Shown here: piece by piece, positions 2,922 to 38,599 of the stretch
Position numbering within the stretch: the first letter of the stretch is position 1
Layout of the letters: every line of letters begins with the position of its first letter
NCBI GenBank assembly: GCA_018058245.1
Contig: JAGPCC010000002.1
Span: 2,643-66,642 of the forward strand
Origin: Verrucomicrobiales bacterium
Lineage (GTDB): Bacteria > Verrucomicrobiota > Verrucomicrobiia > Verrucomicrobiales > DEV007
Reading direction: 5' to 3'
DNA length: 64,000 nt
The notes under the pieces: model-generated
Seen by the model: only the letters and a program-made list of their open reading frames with translations
Told to the model about the DNA's origin: nothing
The model's database searches: none
Program-made: the position numbers and the translations under genes

Positions 2922-4088
2922 GTGAATCAAGAACAACCAAACAACCCGTTCGCCGCATCGACCTCGCGGCGAGCGAAGACCGACACCGCAATACGAATCG
3001 GGTTTTGTGCGATCACCTACTTTATCGTCGTGTTAGCCATTGCAGTGTTTGCGGACATTACCATTAAAGGAGCCCCAGTGGTGTTTCCAAAAATATTCGG
3101 TCAAGACGGCCCTTTTGTGAACACCGATCTATTCACAAAAGACCCGGAAACGTTGGTCGTTTTCGAAGATGTGGAGGCCGATAAAATCACGATGGGATTC
3201 GGCGAGTTCTCCAACTACAAAACCGAAAACCCCAAAGCCGTCATCAACAACGAAAAGACCTTTGCATTCTCGGCTGGCGGTGTTCGCGGCCCGATTCTGG
3301 GAACTATCTTTTTGGTGACGATATGCATCGTTGTCGCATTGTTCATCGGCATCGCTACCGCCATCTATCTAAATGAATACAGTGGTAAGGGAAAAACGGT
3401 AGATGGTATCCGACTCGCCATCCTTAATCTGGCGGGAGTTCCATCGATCGTTTTCGGACTGTTCGGCTTGATGTTCTTTTGCTTTTTCGTGCCTGTCATC
3501 ACACAAACACCGATTGATCGACCAGGCTTCGAGATCTCCCCGATCCCCCTGCCATTTGGGTATTATATCAGCTTCCAAGGCTGGGGAACCTGTATGTTGG
3601 CGGGAGGTTTCACCCTCGCCGCGATGATTCTACCAGTCATCATCACCGCCACCGAAGAATCACTGAAGGCTGTACCCATGGGTTTCCGAGAAGCGTCATT
3701 GGCGTTGGGGGCAACCAAGTGGCAAACGATTCAAAAATCAGTTTTGCCATACGCCTATCCTGGCATACTAACCGCATCAGTGCTCGGCATCACGCGAGCG
3801 GCTGGCGAGACTGCACCGATCATGTTTACCGCCGCCGTGGCACTACGTGACGAGCTACCTTGGGAGGGACTCGATAATACAAGTCTTGGTGCCGTATTCG
3901 ATTTCTTCGGCCAGTCCGTTCAGGCGCTGCCCTATCATATCTACACTGTTGCATCCAAGATACCTCAAACCAAGTACACTGAACCGATGCAGTACGCTGC
4001 AGTATTCATTTTCATGATACTGGTCATGGCCCTCGCCGGACTTTCGGTCTGGTTGCGGGTTCGTGCCCGTGCCAAGTTGAAATGGTAA
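2922..4088 (+). CDS. pstA: Phosphate ABC transporter permease PstA
   Basis: NLAGVPSIVFGLFG, EASLALGATKWQTI (EAA loop) and RAAGETAPI motifs; operon position. Confidence 0.95.
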   Translation: MNQEQPNNPFAASTSRRAKTDTAIRIGFCAITYFIVVLAIAVFADITIKGAPVVFPKIFGQDGPFVNTDLFTKDPETLVVFEDVEADKITMGFGEFSNYKTENPKAVINNEKTFAFSAGGVRGPILGTIFLVTICIVVALFIGIATAIYLNEYSGKGKTVDGIRLAILNLAGVPSIVFGLFGLMFFCFFVPVITQTPIDRPGFEISPIPLPFGYYISFQGWGTCMLAGGFTLAAMILPVIITATEESLKAVPMGFREASLALGATKWQTIQKSVLPYAYPGILTASVLGITRAAGETAPIMFTAAVALRDELPWEGLDNTSLGAVFDFFGQSVQALPYHIYTVASKIPQTKYTEPMQYAAVFIFMILVMALAGLSVWLRVRARAKLKW

Positions 4089-4124
4089 TACGCTGAAAAC
4101 CGAAAATAGAGCATCTGGCTGTAT

Positions 4125-4976
4125 ATGATGACGACAACTCAACCCAAATTCTATATGGAAAACGCAACACCAGCGACTACCTTAGGACCCACTCCAAGCA
4201 CCCATAGCCCAACGCCGACCACGATCATTGAGGTCGATGACGTCAATTTCAGCTACGACAGCAAGGTCGATGTGCTGCGCGACATTTCGCTCCCCATTTA
4301 CGAGCAGCAGGTAACAGCCTTCATCGGACCATCCGGTTGCGGAAAGTCGACCCTGCTACGTTGCTTTAACCGGATGAACGACCTCATCCCCGGCGCGGGC
4401 CTACGAAAGGGCCGGATCAGCATTCTCAACACCGACATTCACTCCAGCGGAGTCGACGTCATCGAACTGCGCAAGCATGTTGGAATGGTGTTTCAGAAAT
4501 CCAATCCATTTCCAAAAAGCATCTACGAAAATCTCGCCTACGGACTCCGCATTGCAGGGGAAAAACGCCCTGAGGTTCTCGATCAGATCATCGAGGAAAG
4601 TCTCCGCAGTTCCGCCTTATGGGATGAGGTAAAAGACCGCCTTCATAGCAGCGCTCTTGGCCTCTCTGGTGGCCAGCAACAAAGGTTATGTATCGCTCGT
4701 GCGATCGCGGTGAAGCCCCGCATCCTATTGATGGATGAACCATGTTCCGCACTCGATCCGATCGCCACCGCAAAGGTTGAAGAACTAATCATTCAACTTA
4801 AGAAAGACTACACGATTGTAATCGTTACCCATAATATGCAACAAGCTACCCGAGTGTCTGACCGCACCGCATTCTTCTACCTCGGCGAACTGATCGAAAT
4901 TGATGCAACTCCAGTCTTGTTCAGCAATCCTTCCCGAACTGAAACGGAGGACTATATTAGTGGTCGGTTCGGCTGA
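4125..4976 (+). CDS. pstB: Phosphate ABC transporter ATP-binding protein
   Basis: GPSGCGKST Walker [15 protein letters not shown] signature, [22 protein letters not shown] end. Confidence 0.97.
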
Positions 4977-21477: not shown

Positions 21478-22758
21478 TTGATGAACTTCAGCGACCTCCG
21501 ATCAATTCTACAATACGTGCCACAATTCCGCGGGCGCACCTTCGTGGTTGCGCTCGACGGTTCCGTGATCGATTCGCGGGATTTCTCGAACATACTCCTC
21601 GATATCGCGGTCCTGCGCTCTCTGAACATCAAAGTCGTCCTCGTCCACGGTGCCGCCGCTCAGATCGAAGCGCTCGGGAGCAAGCGGAATGTCCCGCTCT
21701 CCAATCTCGACGGCACCGGCACGACCGACGAAGCCACTCTCGAGGTCAGCATGGACGCCATCACCCGCCTCAGCAATTCGGTGATGCAGAGCCTCACCAC
21801 GGTGAAACTAAAGGCGGCTACCGCCAACGCGATCCACGCCCACCCGGCCGGCATCATCAAAGGCATCGACACGGGATTCACCGGGACGATCGAAAAAATC
21901 GACAGCAGTGTTCTCCAAAGTTTTCTCGATCAGGACATCCTCCCCGTCGTGCCGCCGCTCGGCTTCGACGCCGACGGTCAGACCCTCCGTGTGAACTCCG
22001 ATGCAGTCGCTCGTGAGGTCGCGACAGCTCTGGCCGCAGCAAAAATCCTCTTTGTCTCGACGGCCGATCCTCGGGATGTCACGCACGAAGGCCAGCGACA
22101 GTGGAGTGCCGAAGCCGCCCTGACCTTCATCGAGGAAAATCCATCGCTCCCGACCGGCATGGTCTCCAAGTTAAAACATGCTGCTCGGGCCTCTCGCGAT
22201 GGAGTTCCTCGAGTCCATCTCATCAGTAGTCGCACCGAAGACGCGATCCTGTCCGAGCTTTTCAGCAACGAAGGGGTCGGCGTCATGATCTATTCGGATG
22301 CGTATCAAAAAGTTCGGAAGGCTACCCGGAACGACATCGACGAACTCTATCTCCTCATCCACCGGGCGATTGAGGACGAGCAACTCATCGAGAGAAGTCG
22401 CGCGGACATTCAAAGCGTCATCGACGACTACATCGTCGTCGAGATCGACGGAAACGTGGTCGGTTGCGTCGCAGTTCACCCTTATCGGGATGACAACAAG
22501 GCCGAGCTCGCCTGTCTCTATGTGAAAAAGGGACACACCGGGCAAGGTTATGGGAACATCCTCGTGGACGCCGCCGCAGCGCGTGGGAAGGAACTGGGAT
22601 GCGCCCACCTCTTCGCCCTCTCCACCCAGGCCGCGGGATACCTCGAACGGGCCGGATTCAACAAGAGCGACGATCTCACTTACCTCCCGGTCCAGAGACG
22701 ACGCAAATGGGAGGAAAATGGTCGCAATGCCGTCCTACTCCTCCGTAGTCTTTCCTGA
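21478..22758 (+). CDS. argA: Amino-acid N-acetyltransferase (AAK plus GNAT domains)
   Basis: YVPQFRGRTFVV, LVHGA, ELFSNEGVG, ELACLYV...GQGYG. Confidence 0.92.
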   Translation: MMNFSDLRSILQYVPQFRGRTFVVALDGSVIDSRDFSNILLDIAVLRSLNIKVVLVHGAAAQIEALGSKRNVPLSNLDGTGTTDEATLEVSMDAITRLSNSVMQSLTTVKLKAATANAIHAHPAGIIKGIDTGFTGTIEKIDSSVLQSFLDQDILPVVPPLGFDADGQTLRVNSDAVAREVATALAAAKILFVSTADPRDVTHEGQRQWSAEAALTFIEENPSLPTGMVSKLKHAARASRDGVPRVHLISSRTEDAILSELFSNEGVGVMIYSDAYQKVRKATRNDIDELYLLIHRAIEDEQLIERSRADIQSVIDDYIVVEIDGNVVGCVAVHPYRDDNKAELACLYVKKGHTGQGYGNILVDAAAARGKELGCAHLFALSTQAAGYLERAGFNKSDDLTYLPVQRRRKWEENGRNAVLLLRSLS

Positions 22759-23988
22759 GTTTTCCTCCGCATTGACCGAGTGGATCACAAAGAGAGTCGT
22801 ATCATCGCTCCCGGCCTCGGCGAGAGACCACTCAAGGATGCGCTTGGCGACCGTTTCCGCATCACTTCCGTCGGCATCGGCATCGGCAAAACACTGGGCA
22901 ATATTCTTGTTCCACATCCCGTCAGTTACTCCGTCAGAACAGATCAAAAACCAATCCCCTCGCTCAATCGTGCTCGAGGACACCTGCGGGGAGACAAATT
23001 GACATCCCGCCCCGATTGCCTGTCTCAAGATGTTTTTCCGAGGATGACTGCGAGCCTCGCGCTCACTGAGCTTTCCGGCACGAAATTCCGCTCCTACGTA
23101 GGTATGATCAAAGGTTAGTTGTTTTAACTCGCCTTTCCGAAACTGATACAAACGACTGTCGCCGACATGGGCGAAGTAGACCCGAGTGCGATGGAAAAGC
23201 CCACATACCACCGTGGCCCCCATCCCCATCAGCCTCGGATCGCGATCTCCGACGCGGGTGACATAGTCATGCAGCGATCTGACCGCAGACTCCAGGAGTG
23301 CTTCTGGATCCGCCGCACCGTGGAAGTCCCCCAGCATGGCGGGAAGAAAACGACGCAATTCTCTCACGACCAGCTCGCTGGCCACCTCGCCCGAGGCAGG
23401 CCCGCCCATTCCATCACTAACCGCAAAGATGAGTCCACTGTCATCAATCGAATTTTCCCCGCTCAAATCAGCACTGTTGGCCCATCCCTTTTCCGAATAA
23501 AACACCGAGAGAGCATCCTGATTGACCGACTTCCGCCTCCCGTCATGACTGAGACCGCACCATTGCAGAATCCGGTGCGCTTCCTCCTCCTGGCAGAGAT
23601 GTCCGGGATGTTCCTTCACCTCGGCGAGTTCAAAATCGATGATGCAAAACTGCCCCTGTCGTGCGTTGTAGGTGATGTTTCTAGGAAAAGGATCATCATG
23701 AACCACCCCGTATTCCTGCTCCAACATCTCAAAAAGCTCCGCTGCTTTTGCTTCGCTGATGGTTTTCTCGGCGGGCGCACCGCAATTCGTCGTGATGATC
23801 GTGAGGGTCTCGGGATCGCTCTCGAGGAGGCGCGGCACATAGTCACAGCCGCGTGCTTCCAGCACTTTCAAAACTCGGACTTCGTTCTGAAACCTCAGAT
23901 CATTGTCCGTGCCGCGGAAAGTCTTATGCACCCGACCATCGTAGCCGACTTTCACGATGGATCGGATTCCGTCCTTGGCGATTTTCAT
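22735..23988 (-). CDS. Fusion of a minimal protein-kinase-like domain and a PP2C/PPM phosphatase
   Basis: N-terminus: VHK...F-x-NE, HDDPFPRNI catalytic-loop-like, IIDFE. C-terminus: NQD, AVSDGMGG, HVGDSRLY, CSDGVTDG, GSDDTT. Probable start MKIAKDG at 23988. Confidence 0.8.
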   Translation of the reverse strand: MKIAKDGIRSIVKVGYDGRVHKTFRGTDNDLRFQNEVRVLKVLEARGCDYVPRLLESDPETLTIITTNCGAPAEKTISEAKAAELFEMLEQEYGVVHDDPFPRNITYNARQGQFCIIDFELAEVKEHPGHLCQEEEAHRILQWCGLSHDGRRKSVNQDALSVFYSEKGWANSADLSGENSIDDSGLIFAVSDGMGGPASGEVASELVVRELRRFLPAMLGDFHGAADPEALLESAVRSLHDYVTRVGDRDPRLMGMGATVVCGLFHRTRVYFAHVGDSRLYQFRKGELKQLTFDHTYVGAEFRAGKLSEREARSHPRKNILRQAIGAGCQFVSPQVSSSTIERGDWFLICSDGVTDGMWNKNIAQCFADADADGSDAETVAKRILEWSLAEAGSDDTTLFVIHSVNAEENSGKTTEE

Positions 23989-24124
23989 AAAAACATGATT
24001 CTGGGACGAAATCACAGGAAAAGCAAAAGCGAATCTCAAAGAAATGAGAAAACCCTGCCCCGTCATCAGCCATACCCGGTTGCCTCCCCTCCCGGACCGT
24101 GCTAATCGTGCCTTTCCCAGAGAA

Positions 24125-24424
24125 ATGACCGGCATAAAAGAAATACAACTCATCGGCGACGAAGTAGCGATCCGATGGACGGATGACAGCGAAGGCTACA
24201 TCGCGATGTCCCGGCTCCGAGCCCTCTCTCCCAGTGCCGAAACCGCCGGGGAACGCGATCTTCTGGGAAAACAAATCGGCGGCAATGAAATCGGGCGCGA
24301 TTTCAGCAAAATCACCGTGAAAGGGTGGAACATCGTCGGAAACTACGCGATTCAGTTTCGCTTTTCGGACGGACACAATACCGGCATCTACTCGTTCGAC
24401 TATCTCCGGGAAATAGCTGGGTAG
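24125..24424 (+). CDS. DUF971 / gamma-butyrobetaine hydroxylase-like N-terminal domain protein
   Basis: LRALSPSAE, VGNYAIQFRFSDGHNTGIYSFDYL. Confidence 0.88.
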   Translation: MTGIKEIQLIGDEVAIRWTDDSEGYIAMSRLRALSPSAETAGERDLLGKQIGGNEIGRDFSKITVKGWNIVGNYAIQFRFSDGHNTGIYSFDYLREIAG

Positions 24425-24524
24425 CTGGGTAGCTTTTTAGCTCGTAGCTGTTTAGCCCTTTAGCTTCTTTTCGCCTCAACGCCTCAACGCCTCAACGCCT
24501 GAATCCCTGAATCCCTGAATCCCT
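24414..24524. repeat. Compound ~8-bp tandem arrays upstream of purB
   Basis: Seven TAGC-headed units at 7-8 bp period (24414-24468), (CGCCTCAA)x3.6 (24472-24500), (GAATCCCT)x3 (24501-24524). Confidence 0.9.
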
Positions 24525-24534
24525 TCCCCAAAAA

Positions 24535-25953
24535 ATGATCCCAAACGTCCTCGCTGAACGCTACGCCACTGCTGCCATGAAGGCGATTTGGTCCCCGGAA
24601 GGAAAAGTCCGATTGGAGCGAGAGCTCTGGATTGCCGTCATGAAGGCGCAGCGAGACCTTGGTCTCGACATTCCCGCCGAAGCGATTGAAGCCTACGAAC
24701 GAGTCGTCGATCAGGTCGATCTCGCTTCCATCGACGCCCGCGAGCGGGTCACCCGGCACGATGTGAAGGCCCGCATCGAAGAATTTTGTGACCTCGCCGG
24801 TCACGAGCATATCCATAAAGGCATGACGAGCCGCGATCTCACCGAGAACGTGGAGCAACTTCAGGTCTATCGTTCCTTGGAAGTAATCCACTTCCGCACC
24901 GCCGCCGCACTGCATCGCCTTTCGCGCAAAGCCGACGAATTCCGGGATCTCGTCATCACCGCCCGCACCCACAACGTCGCGGCCCAGGTCACCACTTACG
25001 GAAAACGGATCGCCATGTTCGGGGAAGAACTGCTCCTCGCCGCGACCCAATTGCGGGAGACCATCGCTGGCTACCCGGTTCGCGGACTCAAAGGAGCCGT
25101 TGGGACCCAACTCGACCAGCTCAGTCTCTTCGACGGAGATGCCACAAAAGTAATCGATCTCGAAAACCGCATCGCCGGACATCTCGGAATCTCGAAAATT
25201 TTCACCAATGTCGGCCAAGTCTACCCACGCAGCCTCGACTTTCAGGTCGTCTCGACATTGAACCAAATTGCCTCGGCTCCCTCCAGTTTCGCGAAGACTC
25301 TGCGTCTCATGGCCGGACACGAACTCGCCGGAGAAGGTTTTGCCAAAGGTCAGGTCGGTTCCTCTGCCATGCCGCACAAGATGAACAGCCGCAGCTGCGA
25401 ACGAGTGAATGGATTCAAAACCATCCTCGGTGGATACCTCACGATGGCCTCCTCTCTCGCCGGAGATCAGTGGAATGAAGGGGATGTCTCTTGCTCCGTC
25501 GTTCGCCGGGTCATGCTACCCGATGCGTTTTTTGCTACGGACGGTCTCCTCGAAACCTTTATCACGATCCTCGACCAGATGGACGCCAACCCCGCCGTGA
25601 TCGAGCGCGAGAATCGCCACTACCTTCCCTTCCTTCTCAGCACGACCATCATGATGACCGCAGTAAAACGTGGGATCGGTCGTGAGACCGCTCACGAAGT
25701 GATCAAAGAGCACGCCGTCGCCGCCGCCCGCGCCTATCGTGCCGGGGAAAGTACCGGCAACGACCTCATCCAGCGTCTCGCCGCCGACAAACGCCTCGGA
25801 ATGACCGAAAAAGAGCTGCAAACCTGCCTGGAAGACGGACAAGCCAACGCCGGAGCCGTCAGTTTGCAAATCGATCGATTTCTCCGCGAAGCAAAAGTAT
25901 TCTCCGGCAATATCGAAGGATCGGAAACGTATACACCAGGAAGTATTCTTTAG
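24535..25953 (+). CDS. purB: Adenylosuccinate lyase
   Basis: HKGMTSRD, ARTHNVAAQ, GSSAMPHKMN signature. Confidence 0.96.
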   Translation: MIPNVLAERYATAAMKAIWSPEGKVRLERELWIAVMKAQRDLGLDIPAEAIEAYERVVDQVDLASIDARERVTRHDVKARIEEFCDLAGHEHIHKGMTSRDLTENVEQLQVYRSLEVIHFRTAAALHRLSRKADEFRDLVITARTHNVAAQVTTYGKRIAMFGEELLLAATQLRETIAGYPVRGLKGAVGTQLDQLSLFDGDATKVIDLENRIAGHLGISKIFTNVGQVYPRSLDFQVVSTLNQIASAPSSFAKTLRLMAGHELAGEGFAKGQVGSSAMPHKMNSRSCERVNGFKTILGGYLTMASSLAGDQWNEGDVSCSVVRRVMLPDAFFATDGLLETFITILDQMDANPAVIERENRHYLPFLLSTTIMMTAVKRGIGRETAHEVIKEHAVAAARAYRAGESTGNDLIQRLAADKRLGMTEKELQTCLEDGQANAGAVSLQIDRFLREAKVFSGNIEGSETYTPGSIL

Positions 25954-30957: not shown

Positions 30958-32022
30958 ATGACTACTCCCCGCCGCCCGCTGCATCGCGTTGCCGAGGTTC
31001 ACTCCGGTCTTCCAGTGAGTGCCTCTGAACCGGAGACATCGGGCGGCGGGGCACTGGTCCTTGCCTTAATGCCGGCGTCGCTGAAATTCGATGCTGAGTT
31101 TTCGCCGGGGTCGGAAACTCTAGTCAAAGTCCTTGCCGCTTCGGCACCGGATTCCCGATTCCAGGTTCAGTCCGGGGATATCCTCGTTACCGCCAAGTCG
31201 ACGGAAGCGAGCCTTCGCTGCGGAATCATTGCAGCGGATTGGGACCAGCGTCCTTCCCCGGTCTTTGCGTCAAGCTTGATTCGGATTCGAGTGGCAACGC
31301 CCGAGACGATTCTTCCGCGCTTTCTCCACGCCTGGCTGAGCAGCTCGAGCGGGAAAATTTCATTAAAGGCCGTATCCCAATCCGCGACCTCGCAAATGAA
31401 CCTCACGACCGCCGCGATCTCCCAACTTCAAGTTCCAGTTCCACCGATGGAGGAGCAACGGAGGATTGTGGAGTTTCTCGACGCGGCAGTCACCGCACAT
31501 GATTCCGCGATTGCCGCTGCTGAGACCCGGCTTGCTCTCGCGCACGAAATTGCATTTAACCCAACGCTTCCGATGCCCTTTCACGATTCCAAATCTCGAT
31601 CACCACGCCTTCTCATACAGACGGCCCGCCCGGAAACCACAATCCTGACAACCGAACGTGGCGATGGCACGTCGATGCCGAACTCGTCACTTTGGCCGGA
31701 AGTCAGAGAACTGGTCGAGGCGCTTCCCGATCGCCCCTTGGCGAGGCTCTTTGATCCGTATGCCAGCGAAACCGCTTACTTGGATCGAACCGAACTCGCC
31801 CGACTTATCGCCAAAGAACTGCGAACGCTGCTTGCCATTTGCGCAGCCCACCCGCACGATCTGATTCGGACCTACGAGAAAGAGGCGATGATCGACGTCG
31901 ATTACACGCTGGCTTCCCGCCTCGGAATCTACATGGGCGAACGCTCCGTTGATTACTTTCTGATGGAACTCGAAACCCTTCCCCCTGAAACCCAGGAACA
32001 AGTCCACGTTCACCTTACCTGA
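30958..32022 (+). CDS. hsdS: Half-size HsdS-like specificity subunit (one TRD) with ~150-aa unknown C-terminal extension
   Basis: GDILV, LIRIR, FLHAWLSS, Q-x-NLT...ISQLQVPVPPMEEQRRIV conserved HsdS helix; only one TRD. Confidence 0.72.
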   Translation: MTTPRRPLHRVAEVHSGLPVSASEPETSGGGALVLALMPASLKFDAEFSPGSETLVKVLAASAPDSRFQVQSGDILVTAKSTEASLRCGIIAADWDQRPSPVFASSLIRIRVATPETILPRFLHAWLSSSSGKISLKAVSQSATSQMNLTTAAISQLQVPVPPMEEQRRIVEFLDAAVTAHDSAIAAAETRLALAHEIAFNPTLPMPFHDSKSRSPRLLIQTARPETTILTTERGDGTSMPNSSLWPEVRELVEALPDRPLARLFDPYASETAYLDRTELARLIAKELRTLLAICAAHPHDLIRTYEKEAMIDVDYTLASRLGIYMGERSVDYFLMELETLPPETQEQVHVHLT

Positions 32023-32039
32023 CCCCTGATCATTCCCCC

Positions 32040-33809
32040 ATGCTCACCCGCGAAGAACTCAACCGCCAGCTCTGGGGCGCCGCCGACATCCTGCGCGGTG
32101 CCGTCGATGCCGCCGATTTCAAGAATCACATCCTCTCCCTGCTTTTCCTGAAGCGGCTTTCCGACGTCTTCTTCGAACGGCGCGAGGAAATCCTGCGGGA
32201 ATGGCGGGAGGCGGGAAAGTCGCCCGCCGAAGCTGAAGCCATTGCCGATGATCCCGACGAATACGACGACGGGGCCTACTTCCTGCCGGTCGAATCGCGC
32301 TGGCCCTCGCTGATGAAGGTCGCCGAAAACCGCGCCGAGGCGATCGACAAGGCCCTCGTCGCCATCGAAGACACGAACTCGGCCTACCTCAGCGGCGTCC
32401 TGGCCGGAGTCCGCTTCAACGACGAGCGCCGCTTCGGCGACGCGGCGACGATGGACGGTCTGATGCAGCGTCTCCTCGCGCACTTCGCGAGGATTCCGCT
32501 CGGGAACCGCGATCTCCTCGAGCCCGACGTGCTCGGGAATGCCTACGAGTTTCTCATCGAGCGATTTGCGGAGACGGCAGGGAAAAAGGGCGGCGAGTTT
32601 TACACCCCGCGCGGAGTTGTACGCCTCCTCGTGGAGCTGCTTGATCCCCGCGAAGGCATGCGGATCAACGATCCCACGAGCGGATCCGGCGGTATGTTGA
32701 TCGAGTGCGGGCATCACATCGAGGAGCGCGGGGGGAATCCGCGCAATCTCACCCTGACCGGTCAGGAAAAAAACATCGGCACCTGGGCGATCTGCCGTCT
32801 GAACATGCTCCTCCACGGCTTCCCCGACGCCGACATCCGCGCCGGCGATACGATCCGATCACCGAAGTTCACCACTCACGGGTCACTCGATGCCTTCGAC
32901 CGCGTCATCGCCAATCCGCCCTTTTCCTTGAAGGACTGGGGTGCCGATTCAGCAAGCTCCGATCCTTACCATCGTTTCGAGCGTGGCATCCCACCGAAGA
33001 CGAAGGGCGACATGGCCTTCCTGCTCCACATGATCGAGTCCGTCCGCGAGCGTCGCGGCATGGCCGGCGTGGTTCTACCCCATGGAGTCCTCTTCCGCGG
33101 TGGGTCGGAGGCGAAGATACGCGAATCATTGCTGAAGGACGACCTGATCGAGGCCATCATCGGTCTCCCCGCCTCCCTCTTCTTCGGCACCGGGATTCCC
33201 GCCGCCCTTGTCATCTGCAATTGGAACAAAGCCCCTGAGCGGAAGGGGCGCGTCCTCATCGTTGATGCCTCGACCGATGGCCTTTACCGCGAGGGAAAAT
33301 CCCGCAACTTCCTCGATCCCGTCGATGTCCTGAGGATCGCCGCGATCTTTCACGGATGGGCCGACCCCGGTCGCACCGTGGAAGCGGTCGAGTCCATCGC
33401 CACGACGTGGAAGGCGGCACTCGCGCGACACCGCGACCGCCAGATCGAGCGCGCAGGTGGACCGGCGTCGGAACTTGCCCCTCGAATTCACGAGGACTTT
33501 GACACGCGCCTCGCCGAAATCGAACGGGGCTCCGCGTCGCTCCGCGACTGGTTCGGCGCGACACACCCCGCTCCGGGGGGAGGCACGCGATCCAGTCTTG
33601 AAAAACACGCCGCCGTTGTCGCGGTGAAGGAGGTGCTCAAGGAACACAAGGGCAACCTTAACATCACCCGCCATGTTGATGCGATGGATCCACCGCCGAG
33701 GTTGGATGTGGTGGCGGAGCTGGCGAAACTGCGGGAGTTGGAGCTGAAGCGCGATGAGGCGGAGAAGAAGATGAATGAATTGTTGAAGGAGTTTGGGTAT
33801 GAAAACTAA
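32040..33809 (+). CDS. hsdM: Type I R-M methyltransferase subunit (m6A)
   Basis: LWGAADILRG, GEFYTPRGV, DPTSGSGGML, ANPPFS, VLPHGVLFRGG, NLNITRHVD. Confidence 0.96.
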   Translation: MLTREELNRQLWGAADILRGAVDAADFKNHILSLLFLKRLSDVFFERREEILREWREAGKSPAEAEAIADDPDEYDDGAYFLPVESRWPSLMKVAENRAEAIDKALVAIEDTNSAYLSGVLAGVRFNDERRFGDAATMDGLMQRLLAHFARIPLGNRDLLEPDVLGNAYEFLIERFAETAGKKGGEFYTPRGVVRLLVELLDPREGMRINDPTSGSGGMLIECGHHIEERGGNPRNLTLTGQEKNIGTWAICRLNMLLHGFPDADIRAGDTIRSPKFTTHGSLDAFDRVIANPPFSLKDWGADSASSDPYHRFERGIPPKTKGDMAFLLHMIESVRERRGMAGVVLPHGVLFRGGSEAKIRESLLKDDLIEAIIGLPASLFFGTGIPAALVICNWNKAPERKGRVLIVDASTDGLYREGKSRNFLDPVDVLRIAAIFHGWADPGRTVEAVESIATTWKAALARHRDRQIERAGGPASELAPRIHEDFDTRLAEIERGSASLRDWFGATHPAPGGGTRSSLEKHAAVVAVKEVLKEHKGNLNITRHVDAMDPPPRLDVVAELAKLRELELKRDEAEKKMNELLKEFGYEN

Positions 33810-34380
33810 AGAAAACCAAGTCCAACGCGTTGGCTGGTCCGAGCACTATCTTGGCGAACTTTTCTCCGAGAGAAGGGAACCCGGTATCTCGGGACTGCCA
33901 ATTCTCTCGGTCACAATGAACTCCGGGGTGGTCGCACGCTCCGACTTGGGTAGACGCATCGAATCCGAATTGGCAGATGAATCGCACGCCTTAGTCCGGA
34001 AAAATGACATCGCGTATAATATGATGCGGATGTGGCAGGGCGTCTCCGGCTTAGCGCCATGCGATGGACTCGTTAGCCCAGCCTACGTCGTTCTCAACCC
34101 GAGTGATAGAATAGACCCACTATTTGCGAGCTATCTCTTCAAGATGCCTGAAACGATTCGTCTCTTTCATCGATTTTCGCAGGGTCTGACAGACGACCGG
34201 CTTCGTCTATATTTCGATCAATTCTCTGCAATACGCGTCAATATTCCGGACTCGGTTGAAACTCAGCGGAACATCGCTTCACTCATTTCGACGTTCGACG
34301 AGCGAATTTCACAATCTGAAGCAACTACAGATTTTCTGCGATTCGCGAAGCATGCGCTTTGCCAAGATCTCCTCTCATGA
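33799..34380 (+). CDS. hsdS: Second half-size HsdS specificity subunit (one TRD)
   Basis: W-x4-LGEL start, NDIAYN, VSPAYVVL, QRNIAS...KHALCQDLL end; overlaps the hsdM stop; 193 aa. Confidence 0.85.
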   Translation: MKTKENQVQRVGWSEHYLGELFSERREPGISGLPILSVTMNSGVVARSDLGRRIESELADESHALVRKNDIAYNMMRMWQGVSGLAPCDGLVSPAYVVLNPSDRIDPLFASYLFKMPETIRLFHRFSQGLTDDRLRLYFDQFSAIRVNIPDSVETQRNIASLISTFDERISQSEATTDFLRFAKHALCQDLLS

Positions 34381-35608: not shown

Positions 35609-38599
35609 ATGCCCGAACGCCCCGACAGCCAGACCCCCGCCCTCGCCCTTCTCCGCGACGTGCTGGGCTATTCGGCGACGACGGGCGCGGAACTCACCAA
35701 GGAACGCGGCACCCTTTCCGACCCGTGGCTGGAGTCGCGCCTTCTCGCTGCCGTGAAACGCGTCAATCCGGGTCTCGGGGAAGGCGCGGCGCGCCAGGCG
35801 ATCCTCACCTTGCGCCAAACCGCCGGTCCGGATCTCCTCGAGGCGAACGAACGGCTCCACGTGCTCCTCTCGCGCTGGGTCAGCGTCGAGGAACCCGCCT
35901 CAGTCCCCGGGCAACCGCCGATGCGACGCAGCGTGCGTTTCTTCGATTTCGAGACGGTGTCGAACAACGAGTTCCTCGTCACCGAAGAATTCGTGGTGAA
36001 AGGACCGCAGCGCGAACGGCGCTTCGATCTTGTCATTCACGTCAACGGTCTGCCTCTCGTTGTAATCGAGTGCAAGGATCCCGCCGATCCCCACGCGATC
36101 GAGAAGGGCGTCGGGGATCTACTCGCCTATCAACGCGCCGAAACTGGAGCTCCGCGCCTCTTCGAGACCATCCATTTCTGCCTCGCCCTCAACCGGCACG
36201 ACGCGCGCTACGGCACGGTCGCGACTGAACTACGCCATTACGCCCGCTGGAAGAGCCTGCGCCCCTTCACCGAGGAGAGTCTCACCTCGGCGCTGGGCCG
36301 CACCCCGACACCGCAGGATGAAACCCTCGCCTCGCTCTGCGAACCAGCGCAACTGCTCGACTTTCTCCGGGGATTTGTCGCCTACGAGCGGCGCGGCGGT
36401 CGGCTCGTGAAAAAGCTGGCCCGCTATCAACAATGGGAGGCCGTCATCGATGCCGACGATCGCGTCTCCGACCGCGGACGCGGACCACTGAAACAACGCG
36501 GCGGCGTGATCTGGCACACCCAGGGCAGCGGAAAGAGCCTGACGATGCTGTGGCTGGCCCTACGCCTGCGACGCTCACCTGAACTGGAGAATCCGGGTCT
36601 CGTCATCGTAACGGACCGGAGCGACCTCGACCGCCAGATCGCGACCACCTTCCGGAACTGCGGCTTCGAAAATCCCGTGACCGCCGCGAGCGTGCGCCAT
36701 CTCGGACAGTTGCTCGACAATGCCGAGGGCCAGACCCTGTTGACGACGATCCAGAAATTCGAAGAAGACCTCACGCGCAAGGGCCTGCACCGGATCAAGG
36801 TGCCGATGCACCGTGGCGGCAAGATCATCGTACTGATTGACGAGGCCCACCGCACCGAATACGGGGTCTTCAACGCGCGGCTCCGCGAGGCCATGCCCGA
36901 CGCCTGCTTCATCGCCTTCACCGGTACGCCGATCGCAAAAACCCTCGCAAAGTTCGGCAGCTATATCCACCGCTACACCATGCCCGTCTCGGTGCAGGAC
37001 GGAGCCACCGTCCCGATCCTTTATGAAAATCGCCTTCCCGACCTCGCCGTGTGGGGCAAGCGGCTCGACCCGATCTTCGACGCGGAGCTGGTCCATCTCA
37101 CCGAGGAACAGCGCGAACTGGTGAAGAAGAAGGAAGCGACGATGCGCCGCATCGCCGAGGCCGAGGACCGCATCGAGATGATCGCCCACGACATCGCGAA
37201 ACATTACCGCGAGAACTTTATGGCCGATGGCTTCAAGGGACAGGTCGCGGCCTGCTCGCAAAAGGCGGCGGCCCGCTACTACGAGGCGCTCGACCGGCTC
37301 CTGCCGGGTAAAGTTGCCCTCCTCATCTCCGATCCGCCGAAAGGCGACGACGCGCTCTGGGAGCTGAAACGGAAATTCGCCAACGAATCGGCAATCATCG
37401 AGCAGTTTCTCAACGATCCGCCGGACCGTCTTGCCCTAATCGTCGTCGCCGAAAAATACCTGACAGGGTTCGATGCTCCAGTCGAGAGGGTCCTTTACCT
37501 CGACAAACCCTTGCGGGAACACAATCTGCTCCAGGCGATCGCCCGGGTGAACCGCCCCCTGCCCGAACTCGGCAAAGAGTGGGGGCTGGTGGTGGATTAT
37601 TGGGGTGTCTCCGGCTTTCTGGATCAGGCCCTCGAAGGTCTGCACGAGGATGTCGATCCCGGTGAGATCCTTGTGGAGCGCCTCGGAGAAGAGGCCTACG
37701 CCCGCCTGCGGGCCTGCCATAACGATCTCGCCGACTGTTTCCCGAAAGGCCTTTCGCGGAAGGTGATCGAACCGTGGCTGGAGGCAATCGAAGCCGACGA
37801 TAGACGCGCCATCTTCCTCGCCCGATACCGGGACTTCTACCACTCGATCGAGCAACTGCTCCCCGATCCGCGGGCGCTCGACTTTCTCCCCGACCTCGCC
37901 TGGTACCGGCGGGTGCGGAAAGAGGCCGAAAGCGCCTTTCAGGAACGCGATCTGTCCATCCCCGACTGCTCGGCCCGGATCCGGCAACTGATCGACCGTC
38001 ACGTCCGCGGCGAAGAGATCATCCCACTGCTCAAACCGATCGATATTCTCGGTGAAGACTTTTCGGTGGAGATTGAAAAACTGCGCAGCCCGCGTGCGAA
38101 GGCGATGCGTATGGAGCACGCAATCCGGCATACGATCAGCGTGAAGCTGCATGAAGATCCCGTCTTCTTCGAAAGTCTCTGCGAACGCCTCGCCCGCATC
38201 ATCGGCGAACGGAAGGCCAGCCGTCTTGATGACATCGCCGAATTCCGCCTCCTCGGCGAACTCGCCCGTGAGATGCGGCAACGCGATCAGGAGGCCGGCC
38301 GTCAGGGTGTGAAGACAGAGGAACTTCCCTTCTTCCACGCCATTCAAAAGGCCCTCGAAAAACCGAAGGAGGGTGTCGCCGAAGACACGGAGCCTGACCT
38401 GCCAAAACTGACGCGAGAGATCCTCGCCGATCTCCAGGAAATCGCCGTGATCGACTGGGAGACCAAGGAAGAGGTGATGCGCGACATGCGCCGGGCGATC
38501 AAGCGGCGGCTACGCCTTGATTACACGATTCCCGCCGATGCGATCGAACCACTCGTGGGCTCATTGATGGAGCTCGCCAAGGTACACCTCCGTCGCTGA
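35609..38599 (+). CDS. hsdR: Type I restriction endonuclease subunit R
   Basis: FDLVIHVNGLPLVVIECK nuclease, HTQGSGKS Walker A, DEAHR, FTGTP, LTGFD, LLQAIARVNR. Confidence 0.97.
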   Translation: MPERPDSQTPALALLRDVLGYSATTGAELTKERGTLSDPWLESRLLAAVKRVNPGLGEGAARQAILTLRQTAGPDLLEANERLHVLLSRWVSVEEPASVPGQPPMRRSVRFFDFETVSNNEFLVTEEFVVKGPQRERRFDLVIHVNGLPLVVIECKDPADPHAIEKGVGDLLAYQRAETGAPRLFETIHFCLALNRHDARYGTVATELRHYARWKSLRPFTEESLTSALGRTPTPQDETLASLCEPAQLLDFLRGFVAYERRGGRLVKKLARYQQWEAVIDADDRVSDRGRGPLKQRGGVIWHTQGSGKSLTMLWLALRLRRSPELENPGLVIVTDRSDLDRQIATTFRNCGFENPVTAASVRHLGQLLDNAEGQTLLTTIQKFEEDLTRKGLHRIKVPMHRGGKIIVLIDEAHRTEYGVFNARLREAMPDACFIAFTGTPIAKTLAKFGSYIHRYTMPVSVQDGATVPILYENRLPDLAVWGKRLDPIFDAELVHLTEEQRELVKKKEATMRRIAEAEDRIEMIAHDIAKHYRENFMADGFKGQVAACSQKAAARYYEALDRLLPGKVALLISDPPKGDDALWELKRKFANESAIIEQFLNDPPDRLALIVVAEKYLTGFDAPVERVLYLDKPLREHNLLQAIARVNRPLPELGKEWGLVVDYWGVSGFLDQALEGLHEDVDPGEILVERLGEEAYARLRACHNDLADCFPKGLSRKVIEPWLEAIEADDRRAIFLARYRDFYHSIEQLLPDPRALDFLPDLAWYRRVRKEAESAFQERDLSIPDCSARIRQLIDRHVRGEEIIPLLKPIDILGEDFSVEIEKLRSPRAKAMRMEHAIRHTISVKLHEDPVFFESLCERLARIIGERKASRLDDIAEFRLLGELAREMRQRDQEAGRQGVKTEELPFFHAIQKALEKPKEGVAEDTEPDLPKLTREILADLQEIAVIDWETKEEVMRDMRRAIKRRLRLDYTIPADAIEPLVGSLMELAKVHLRR

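Follow-up and report, generated by a model that had tools for sequence, protein, structure and literature searches.

A truncated protein-kinase-like domain paired with a PP2C phosphatase, by fusion or gene adjacency, in Verrucomicrobiota and Planctomycetota

How much of the protein kinase fold can be dispensed with before the catalytic residues go too, and what would such a remnant do when it shares a polypeptide with a phosphatase? These questions are posed by a gene in a 64,000-nucleotide stretch of DNA from a Verrucomicrobiales bacterium (contig JAGPCC010000002.1, positions 2,643 to 66,642), the whole of which we call the window. The gene, a complete coding sequence on the minus strand (22735..23988; 417 amino acids plus stop, taken from the list of open reading frames (ORFs) with the translation checked), encodes a minimal protein-kinase-like (PKL) domain, a linker and a PP2C phosphatase. 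We find that relatives of the PKL domain are repeatedly fused to, or encoded beside, such a phosphatase, and that their usual neighbour is a gene for a type II glutamine synthetase (glnII). On sequence grounds, the conserved pairing and this neighbour may mark a phospho-switch in nitrogen assimilation that is not described in the literature we searched, and the gene product would be a cytoplasmic two-domain signaling enzyme.

The kinase-like domain occupies residues 1-127 (23608..23988, minus strand, as are all features of the gene given below) and comprises β1-β5, αC, one C-lobe helix (79-93), a catalytic loop, β7-β8, and a DFE motif. The original prediction had picked out the motifs VHK, FQNE, HDDPFPRN, and DFE, and all four lie in the translation where it had placed them. 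We assessed their conservation in alignments of 15 sequences, of 77 stand-alone-type sequences, and of 86 fused sequences. The β3 lysine K22 of VHK (23923..23925) and the metal-binding D118-F119-E120 (23629..23637), the equivalent of DFG, are invariant in all three; the helix-C glutamate E36 of FQNE (23881..23883), inside a predicted helix (29-45), is invariant as well. The catalytic loop HDDPFPRN (residues 97-104; 23677..23700) aligns to HRDVKPSN of Cdc7 and CK2 and has invariant H97, D99, and N104, with R103 invariant or nearly so. K22, E36, H97, D99, N104, and D118-F-E120 persist in divergent representatives at 30-45% identity, among which K22 is kept in at least 90% and D118 is the sole fully invariant column; four divergent entries that look like frameshifted translations (P0327, P0330, P0376, and P0382) were left out when judging conservation. 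R103, directly before N104, stands at the position of the Arg in the tyrosine-kinase motif HRDLAARN, a resemblance from which we draw no specificity.

Sequence and profile searches of the PDB returned only marginal matches to Cdc7 and CK2, running from the catalytic loop to DFG (E 0.0015-0.009). The Pfam model APH (PF01636, PKL clan), whose gathering score is 23.2, matched at 28.1-30.7 bits in a region confined to profile positions 154-198 of 239 (45 positions), which is the generic catalytic loop and DFG region; across the aligned family members, APH matched 77 of 77, Kdo 53, choline kinase 51, and Pkinase, weakly, 15. Since the PDB sequence matches were too weak alone, structure prediction was needed. 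An AlphaFold2 model of residues 1-140, built from the 77-sequence alignment, had a predicted local distance difference test (pLDDT) score of 91.2 and a predicted template-modeling score (pTM) of 0.83, and its elements follow the canonical order, namely β1-β2-β3, αC, β4-β5, helix 79-93, catalytic loop, β7-β8, and DFE. Foldseek found 400 PDB matches at E<=1e-3 with this model, and all 50 of those listed are kinases or kinase-like proteins with probability 1.00, led by ArkI and followed by CK2α, PRPK/Bud32, Rio2, and Fyn. The best match, ArkI (173 residues in the PDB), has E 3e-8, 25% identity over 137 aligned columns, and a query-normalized template-modeling score (TM) of 0.67. Among predicted viral structures (BFVD), the best matches are giant-virus kinases of 160-183 residues, with query-normalized TM up to 0.75, and the phage family phrog_3297, annotated as 'kinase' (160-position profile), matches the domain at E 5e-8. 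The core fold, the Lys, the Glu, the HxD...N loop, and the DFG-type Asp that define the PKL superfamily are all present. Because the confident model, the kinase matches in Foldseek, and the viral-kinase and phrog_3297 matches agree, we conclude that the N-terminal domain, as modeled, is a PKL fold; the proposal that the first ~125 residues form a drastically truncated PKL domain is thereby upheld, and a non-PKL fold is rejected.

The position of ArkI at the head of the structural matches raises the possibility that the domain phosphorylates something other than a protein, either RNA, as ArkI does at the 2'-OH of tRNA U47, or a small molecule in the style of APH, choline kinase, or Kdo kinase, with the PP2C having a separate or regulatory role. 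The best PDB match is indeed an RNA kinase that also has DFE rather than DFG (PMC9095486), and the only Pfam models above threshold are the small-molecule kinase families APH and Kdo. ArkI (COG2112/AQ578; PDB 8yv4/8yv5) resembles the domain described here in being a very small PKL enzyme; its features, as described for TkArkI, are an HGQ catalytic loop, family-specific helices α6/α7, a YKR motif, a basic tRNA-binding patch, and DFE (PMC9095486). DFE is the only one of these motifs that the two share. The loop in our family reads HDD, the region of α6/α7 and YKR is absent, and the domain is acidic (median isoelectric point (pI) 5.8 in the family, 5.2 in the window) and has no basic tRNA-binding patch; it stops after the DFE and is tied to a PP2C, whereas ArkI proteins have 173-216 residues and a C-lobe. 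Given the missing helices and motifs and the acidic pI, an RNA-kinase identity drawn from the top ArkI match is unlikely. As for small molecules, the APH match covers just the 45 generic positions, and the domain is paired obligately with a phosphatase of protein Ser/Thr residues, of the Stp1/PstP kind. We therefore consider a non-protein substrate of either kind quite unlikely.

What sets the domain apart is where it ends. The chain of the kinase-like domain stops ~7 residues past the DFE, and the PP2C is entered ~20 residues after it; in the full-length AlphaFold2 model, no helix lies between the DFE (118-120) and the first PP2C strand (140-148), and residues 125-139 are coil. The activation segment and helices αF-αI are absent, so that the domain lacks subdomains VIII-XI of Hanks-type kinases (PF00069), that is, the activation segment with APE, the αF Asp, and αG-αI. 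The variable linker (residues 128-139; 23572..23607) is poorly conserved, gapped, and coil in the model, and it coincides with the stop/start junction of split homologues. Relatives that stand alone are 124-151 residues long, with a median of 133. Despite the truncation, the domain has a full nucleotide pocket and a full set of phosphotransfer residues, all of them invariant. The earlier statement that RIO and Bud32 kinases are the smallest PKL folds turned out to be too strong, as ArkI (173 residues), viral proteins (142-183 residues), and the phrog_3297 profile (160 positions) are as small or smaller. The small phage and giant-virus kinases (phrog_3297; BFVD A0A481YYQ8, A0A5B8IDU2, and A0A0S0MVI9) are predicted proteins with the same core fold as the domain here; in contrast to it, they have no link to a PP2C, are uncharacterized, and are 15-55 residues longer.

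The rest of the protein, which had been read as a complete PPM phosphatase, is borne out as one. Residues 140-405 (22774..23571) match the Pfam models PP2C_2, PP2C, and SpoIIE and the NCBIfam model Stp1, the PP2C_2 match having E 1e-13 and 51.7 bits against a cut-off of 24. The PP2C motifs NQD, SDGMGG, GDSR, DG, and DD occur in order, and the metal ligands D158, D192-G193, D277, D352-G353, and D395-D396 do not vary in the alignments. Foldseek gave target-normalized TM of 0.87-0.90 to PstP and S. agalactiae STP, of 0.84-0.90 when tPphA and Stp1 are counted as well, and of 0.82-0.90 with PppA added. Judging from these features, the C-terminal part is a complete, active-looking Mn/Mg-dependent PPM of the bacterial Stp1/PstP/tPphA type. 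It appears related to Stp1/IreP without being an equivalog, because it scores 171 bits (E 3e-50) with the Stp1/IreP equivalog model NF033484, below the cut-off of 230. An insertion of ~18 residues between motifs 1 and 2 is specific to the family, with G168 invariant and W169 nearly so. Foldseek found no PDB entry that spans both a kinase-like and a PP2C domain.

A chain of such unusual composition could come from an error, a concern that the original prediction had itself raised, and the data dispose of it. The exact gene sequence occurs in 19 metagenome runs (100% of sampled words) from at least 11 studies of wastewater, sludge, bioreactors, and freshwater, and four independent contigs, from four runs in four different studies, span 22600-24200 with zero differences. 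In our survey of 82 related loci, moreover, 45 have the two domains in a single ORF. An assembly or frameshift artefact is ruled out by these three observations, and the fusion is real and conserved.

The same survey supplied the comparison of fused and split homologues that had been proposed as a check, and it strengthens the case for a partnership. In 31 of the 82 loci the domains are split between two ORFs, of which that for the PP2C follows directly, on the same strand (the two genes overlap by 4 bp in two gene-called loci, from Rubritalea and Roseimicrobium), and in the other six the PP2C was not found in the locus, one of these (L029) lying on a short contig. In a neighbor-joining tree of the N-domains, fused and split forms interleave, and the fused ones fall into at least four clades, namely that of the window, one of Akkermansiaceae type, one of Planctomycetota, and scattered single lineages. 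Since the two forms interleave, fusion or fission has, by this tree, occurred repeatedly. The pattern of fused or adjacent genes is that of a Rosetta stone, from which the kinase-like and PP2C parts are predicted to work together as one functional unit.

The family is compact and distinct, because a profile search of 1.84 billion representatives returned just 523 (at the 50% identity level) at E<=1e-3; it is encoded in at least 592 species genomes. A search with the N-domain retrieved 4,989 proteins, the best of which are stand-alone Verrucomicrobiota proteins of ~130 residues, carried among cultured bacteria by Roseimicrobium gellanilyticum, Rubritalea spongiae, and Persicirhabdus sediminis, among others. 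The 80 best loci belong to Verrucomicrobiota (Verrucomicrobiales, Akkermansiaceae, Opitutales, Prosthecobacter, Haloferula, and others) and Planctomycetota (Pirellulaceae and Planctomycetia). Database names for the stand-alone protein conflict and include 'Bud32', 'serine/threonine protein kinase', 'serine/threonine protein phosphatase', and 'RdoA'; the name 'phosphatase' was probably carried over from the PP2C that is fused to it or encoded next to it. The stand-alone form of ~133 residues, the spread of the family over Verrucomicrobiota and Planctomycetota, and the linkage to glnII described below all go beyond what had been noticed in the window itself.

Several individual family members are worth recording. 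A divergent member of 117 residues (L084, 4001-4354; JGI 3300017747, 37.8-kb contig) sits together with a tail-fibre-assembly-like protein in a series of small ORFs that all run the same way, and for these reasons its contig looks like a phage; like the window domain, it matches phrog_3297 'kinase'. Three orphans (L058, L071, and L075, at about 4001-4390) lie behind an mgtE-like magnesium transporter gene, at whose end (4001) they start, which makes this neighborhood a different, recurring context for orphan copies. One metagenome-assembled genome (Verrucomicrobiales MAG_58) holds both a fused copy (L004) and an orphan 143-residue paralogue (L068), with 87% and 61% identity to the window N-domain, respectively; the orphan adjoins a converging gene. 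In L020 (179-1457), from the window's wider clade, the N-domain and PP2C ORFs overlap in different frames and the PP2C scores as in the fused clade, so this locus is probably a fused gene with a frameshift or sequencing error. Finally, P0341 (256 residues) has two tandem mini-kinase domains in one protein.

Clustering of neighboring ORFs across the 82 loci identified one outstanding conserved neighbor, a 338-residue glutamine synthetase that model NF041605 marks as GlnII-type (E 4e-110), its 368 bits falling short of the equivalog cut-off of 500. Its gene is directly adjacent in 47 loci, in three arrangements: downstream of the PP2C on the same strand (21 loci), upstream on the same strand (6), or upstream and divergent (20). 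This adjacency is seen in both phyla, Pirellulaceae loci included, and with fused and split forms alike. Every other neighbor family is common to at most nine loci, and the clustering revealed neither a PII gene nor a Kae1-like gene as a conserved neighbor.

Gene adjacency can persist through inheritance, and it is conceivable that the mini-kinase has the PP2C or itself as its sole substrate, that the phosphatase acts on targets made by other Hanks-type kinases, and that the position beside glnII is inherited synteny without functional meaning. Such autoregulation would suit the tight arrangement in cis or in a complex, and the window's clade has lost the glnII adjacency but kept the gene. Inertia alone, however, hardly explains an adjacency found in three arrangements and two phyla, and the alignment shows a variable linker in which no conserved Ser/Thr acceptor was seen. 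We judge a purely self-directed role very unlikely.

The reading that we favor, and to which we give an even chance on present sequence evidence, is that of an antagonistic kinase/phosphatase module, possibly controlling GlnII. The PKL domain is pared down to an ATP-binding N-lobe and, from the C-lobe, a catalytic core made up of one helix, the HxD...N loop, β7-β8, and DFE. This mini-kinase would use ATP to phosphorylate a protein substrate on Ser/Thr, and the PP2C joined to it would strip the same phosphate, forming a writer/eraser pair whose balance might be set by a metabolic signal. The likeliest pathway is nitrogen assimilation, with GlnII or a regulator of GlnII as the putative target, and our working analogies are AceK acting on isocitrate dehydrogenase and GlnE acting on type I glutamine synthetase (GSI). 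The full-length model (pLDDT 89.6, pTM 0.88) suggests that the fused chain is a rigid two-domain body; if it is, the PP2C may buttress the kinase core on the exposed face where αF and the other C-lobe helices normally sit. There is a precedent in the minimal kinase OspG, which is held in its active conformation by a binding partner (PMC9950578), the mechanism that we propose for the PP2C here. OspG, NleH, and HopBF1 are likewise stripped-down kinase cores, and NleH1 turned up in our PDB profile search; these proteins are secreted virulence effectors acting in eukaryotic hosts, and larger (the NleH1 chain in the PDB has 169 residues), whereas the domain here is predicted to be cytoplasmic, in a housekeeping context, in free-living bacteria of the Planctomycetota-Verrucomicrobiota (PVC) superphylum from wastewater and freshwater.

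Several points weigh against this proposal. The domain has none of the parts through which ordinary protein kinases hold their peptide substrates, and conserved catalytic residues are no proof of protein-kinase activity: Bud32 keeps them yet works mainly as an ATPase. The sole basis for the interdomain interface is the pTM of the model. Copies without a PP2C exist (L068, L039, L058, L071, L075, L083, and L084 on the phage-like contig), so the fold has no strict need of a fused or adjacent phosphatase. As for the target, tblastn found no glutamine synthetase gene in the 64-kb window, and the window's closest clade mostly lies between argA and a DUF971/purB block; only four loci that are basal in the wider clade (L018, L019, L023, and L025) keep the adjacency within it. 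The link of the window gene to GlnII is therefore made by phylogenetic extension, and some of the synteny may have been passed down from ancestors without being kept by selection.

Some of these points would suit a domain that phosphorylates no third protein and instead senses nucleotide or hydrolyzes ATP, in the manner of Bud32 or of a pseudokinase, switching the PP2C allosterically; the substrate of the phosphatase would then be phosphorylated by another kinase. The domain keeps just the nucleotide pocket and catalytic core, without substrate-docking elements, Bud32/PRPK is among its best structural matches, and the Bud32 model (TIGR03724) is its only NCBIfam kinase match (E 9.5e-5, profile positions 38-136 of 193). 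Rigid packing (pTM 0.88) and obligate pairing suit an allosteric regulator equally well, and a kinase fused to a phosphatase with the same target site would otherwise be prone to futile cycling. On the other side, D99, N104, and D118 are invariant, whereas in pure sensors and pseudokinases one or more of them has usually been lost, and there are orphan copies without a PP2C. The invariant catalytic Asp and both metal ligands favor catalysis, yet ATPase regulators of the Bud32 type keep them too. We regard allosteric sensing as a serious competitor of the writer/eraser module, with a distinctly smaller probability. The original prediction had offered both a bifunctional switch and a nucleotide-sensing regulator; its structural part stands, and the sequence is compatible with either function.

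The likeness to Bud32/PRPK, of the KEOPS complex, and to RIO is that both are atypical PKL folds of minimal size, lack an activation loop, and stand among the top structural matches. Bud32 also works in association with a partner enzyme, Kae1, to which it is fused in some archaea (PDB 2vwb and 3en9 are among the Foldseek matches). However, the Bud32 model scores 22 bits where its cut-off is 125, a PP2C takes the place of Kae1 as partner, and the RIO1 Pfam model (PF01163) matches one of the 77 members (E 0.033). Bud32 and RIO, in contrast to the domain here, keep C-lobe helices past the DFG equivalent. Membership in the Bud32, RIO, ArkI, Hanks, and Stp1-equivalog families was rejected, as a defining feature of each is missing from the window protein.

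Returning to the writer/eraser module, its boldest form would combine several claims: that the ~127-residue domain is the smallest self-sufficient catalytic protein-kinase core, that the PP2C serves as its C-lobe, and that the whole is a bifunctional GlnII kinase/phosphatase, a phosphorylation-based counterpart of adenylylation by GlnE that would control ammonium assimilation in Verrucomicrobia and Planctomycetes. We know of no smaller self-sufficient catalytic protein-kinase core, and we consider it unlikely that all of these claims hold jointly. Should the domain prove active, PKL catalysis would need far less of the fold than had been supposed, with neither the αF hydrophobic anchor nor the activation segment, and a different enzyme could then replace the C-lobe, which bears on kinase evolution and on protein design.

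Writer/eraser logic is familiar from Stk/Stp operons (PrkC/PrpC, PknB/PstP), in which a PP2C of the same structural subfamily adjoins its cognate Ser/Thr kinase. The kinase in those operons is a full Hanks domain of ~270 residues, usually a membrane receptor with PASTA or other sensors, whereas here it is a soluble core of 127 residues, with the order kinase then phosphatase and often fused. In AceK, HprK/P, and GlnE, one polypeptide adds and removes a regulatory group on a metabolic enzyme, GSI in the case of GlnE. AceK uses a single PKL active site for both reactions, in contrast to the two separate catalytic domains here; GlnE and HprK/P have no sequence or fold relationship to our module, for which the glutamine synthetase would be of type II. 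A connection of the PPM family with nitrogen signaling is known from the cyanobacterial PII phosphatase tPphA/PphA, itself a PPM, which the PP2C domain resembles with a target-normalized TM of 0.88; tPphA has neither a kinase-like domain nor such a partner gene.

Both superfamilies, and pairs of a kinase with a PP2C, are already known. What appears to be new is the truncation to ~127 residues with all catalytic residues in place, the obligate pairing with a PP2C and the repeated fusion to it, and the linkage to glnII. Literature searches for a description of the family or for phosphorylation of bacterial GlnII found nothing relevant, and to our knowledge no covalent regulation of type II glutamine synthetase is known in bacteria. 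The glnII linkage suggests a route of post-translational GlnII regulation in PVC bacteria. Repeated fusion and fission also amount to a natural experiment in linking a writer to an eraser, in which split and fused versions can be compared, and recognition of the family would correct hundreds of genome annotations.

The start of the window gene deserves a comment, since the mechanical minus-strand ORF from its first ATG is longer (22735..24153; 472 amino acids). We place the biological start at the ATG at 23988, from which the product begins MKIAKDG, because the more than 120 full-length homologues have ~405-415 residues and those aligned share the MKIAKDG N-terminus. The 55-codon upstream extension runs into a divergent, plus-strand DUF971-like ORF (24044-24424, probable start near 24125). 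Homologue lengths, the MKIAKDG start, and the overlap with the DUF971-like gene together rule out the 472-residue ORF.

At its other end, the gene converges with a plus-strand gene for an argA-type N-acetylglutamate synthase (21478-22758; NCBIfam TIGR01890 above cut-off), and the two 3' ends share 24 bp (22735-22758). No terminator-like site was found between these two genes, a promoter and terminator scan of 22500-24600 returned nothing that exceeds shuffled expectation, and an Rfam scan of the window gave zero matches. The short intergenic region between the DUF971-like and purB-like genes (24414-24524) consists almost wholly of three different perfect 8-bp tandem repeats (TAGCTGGG x2.6, CGCCTCAA x3.6, and CCTGAATC x3.4) and a 23-bp repeat. 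Elsewhere in the window, two 2-kb blocks (32001-34000 and 36001-38000) have a G+C content of 0.62-0.63, compared with ~0.52-0.58 in the remainder; long ORFs (32040-33809 and 35609-38599) lie in the same places.

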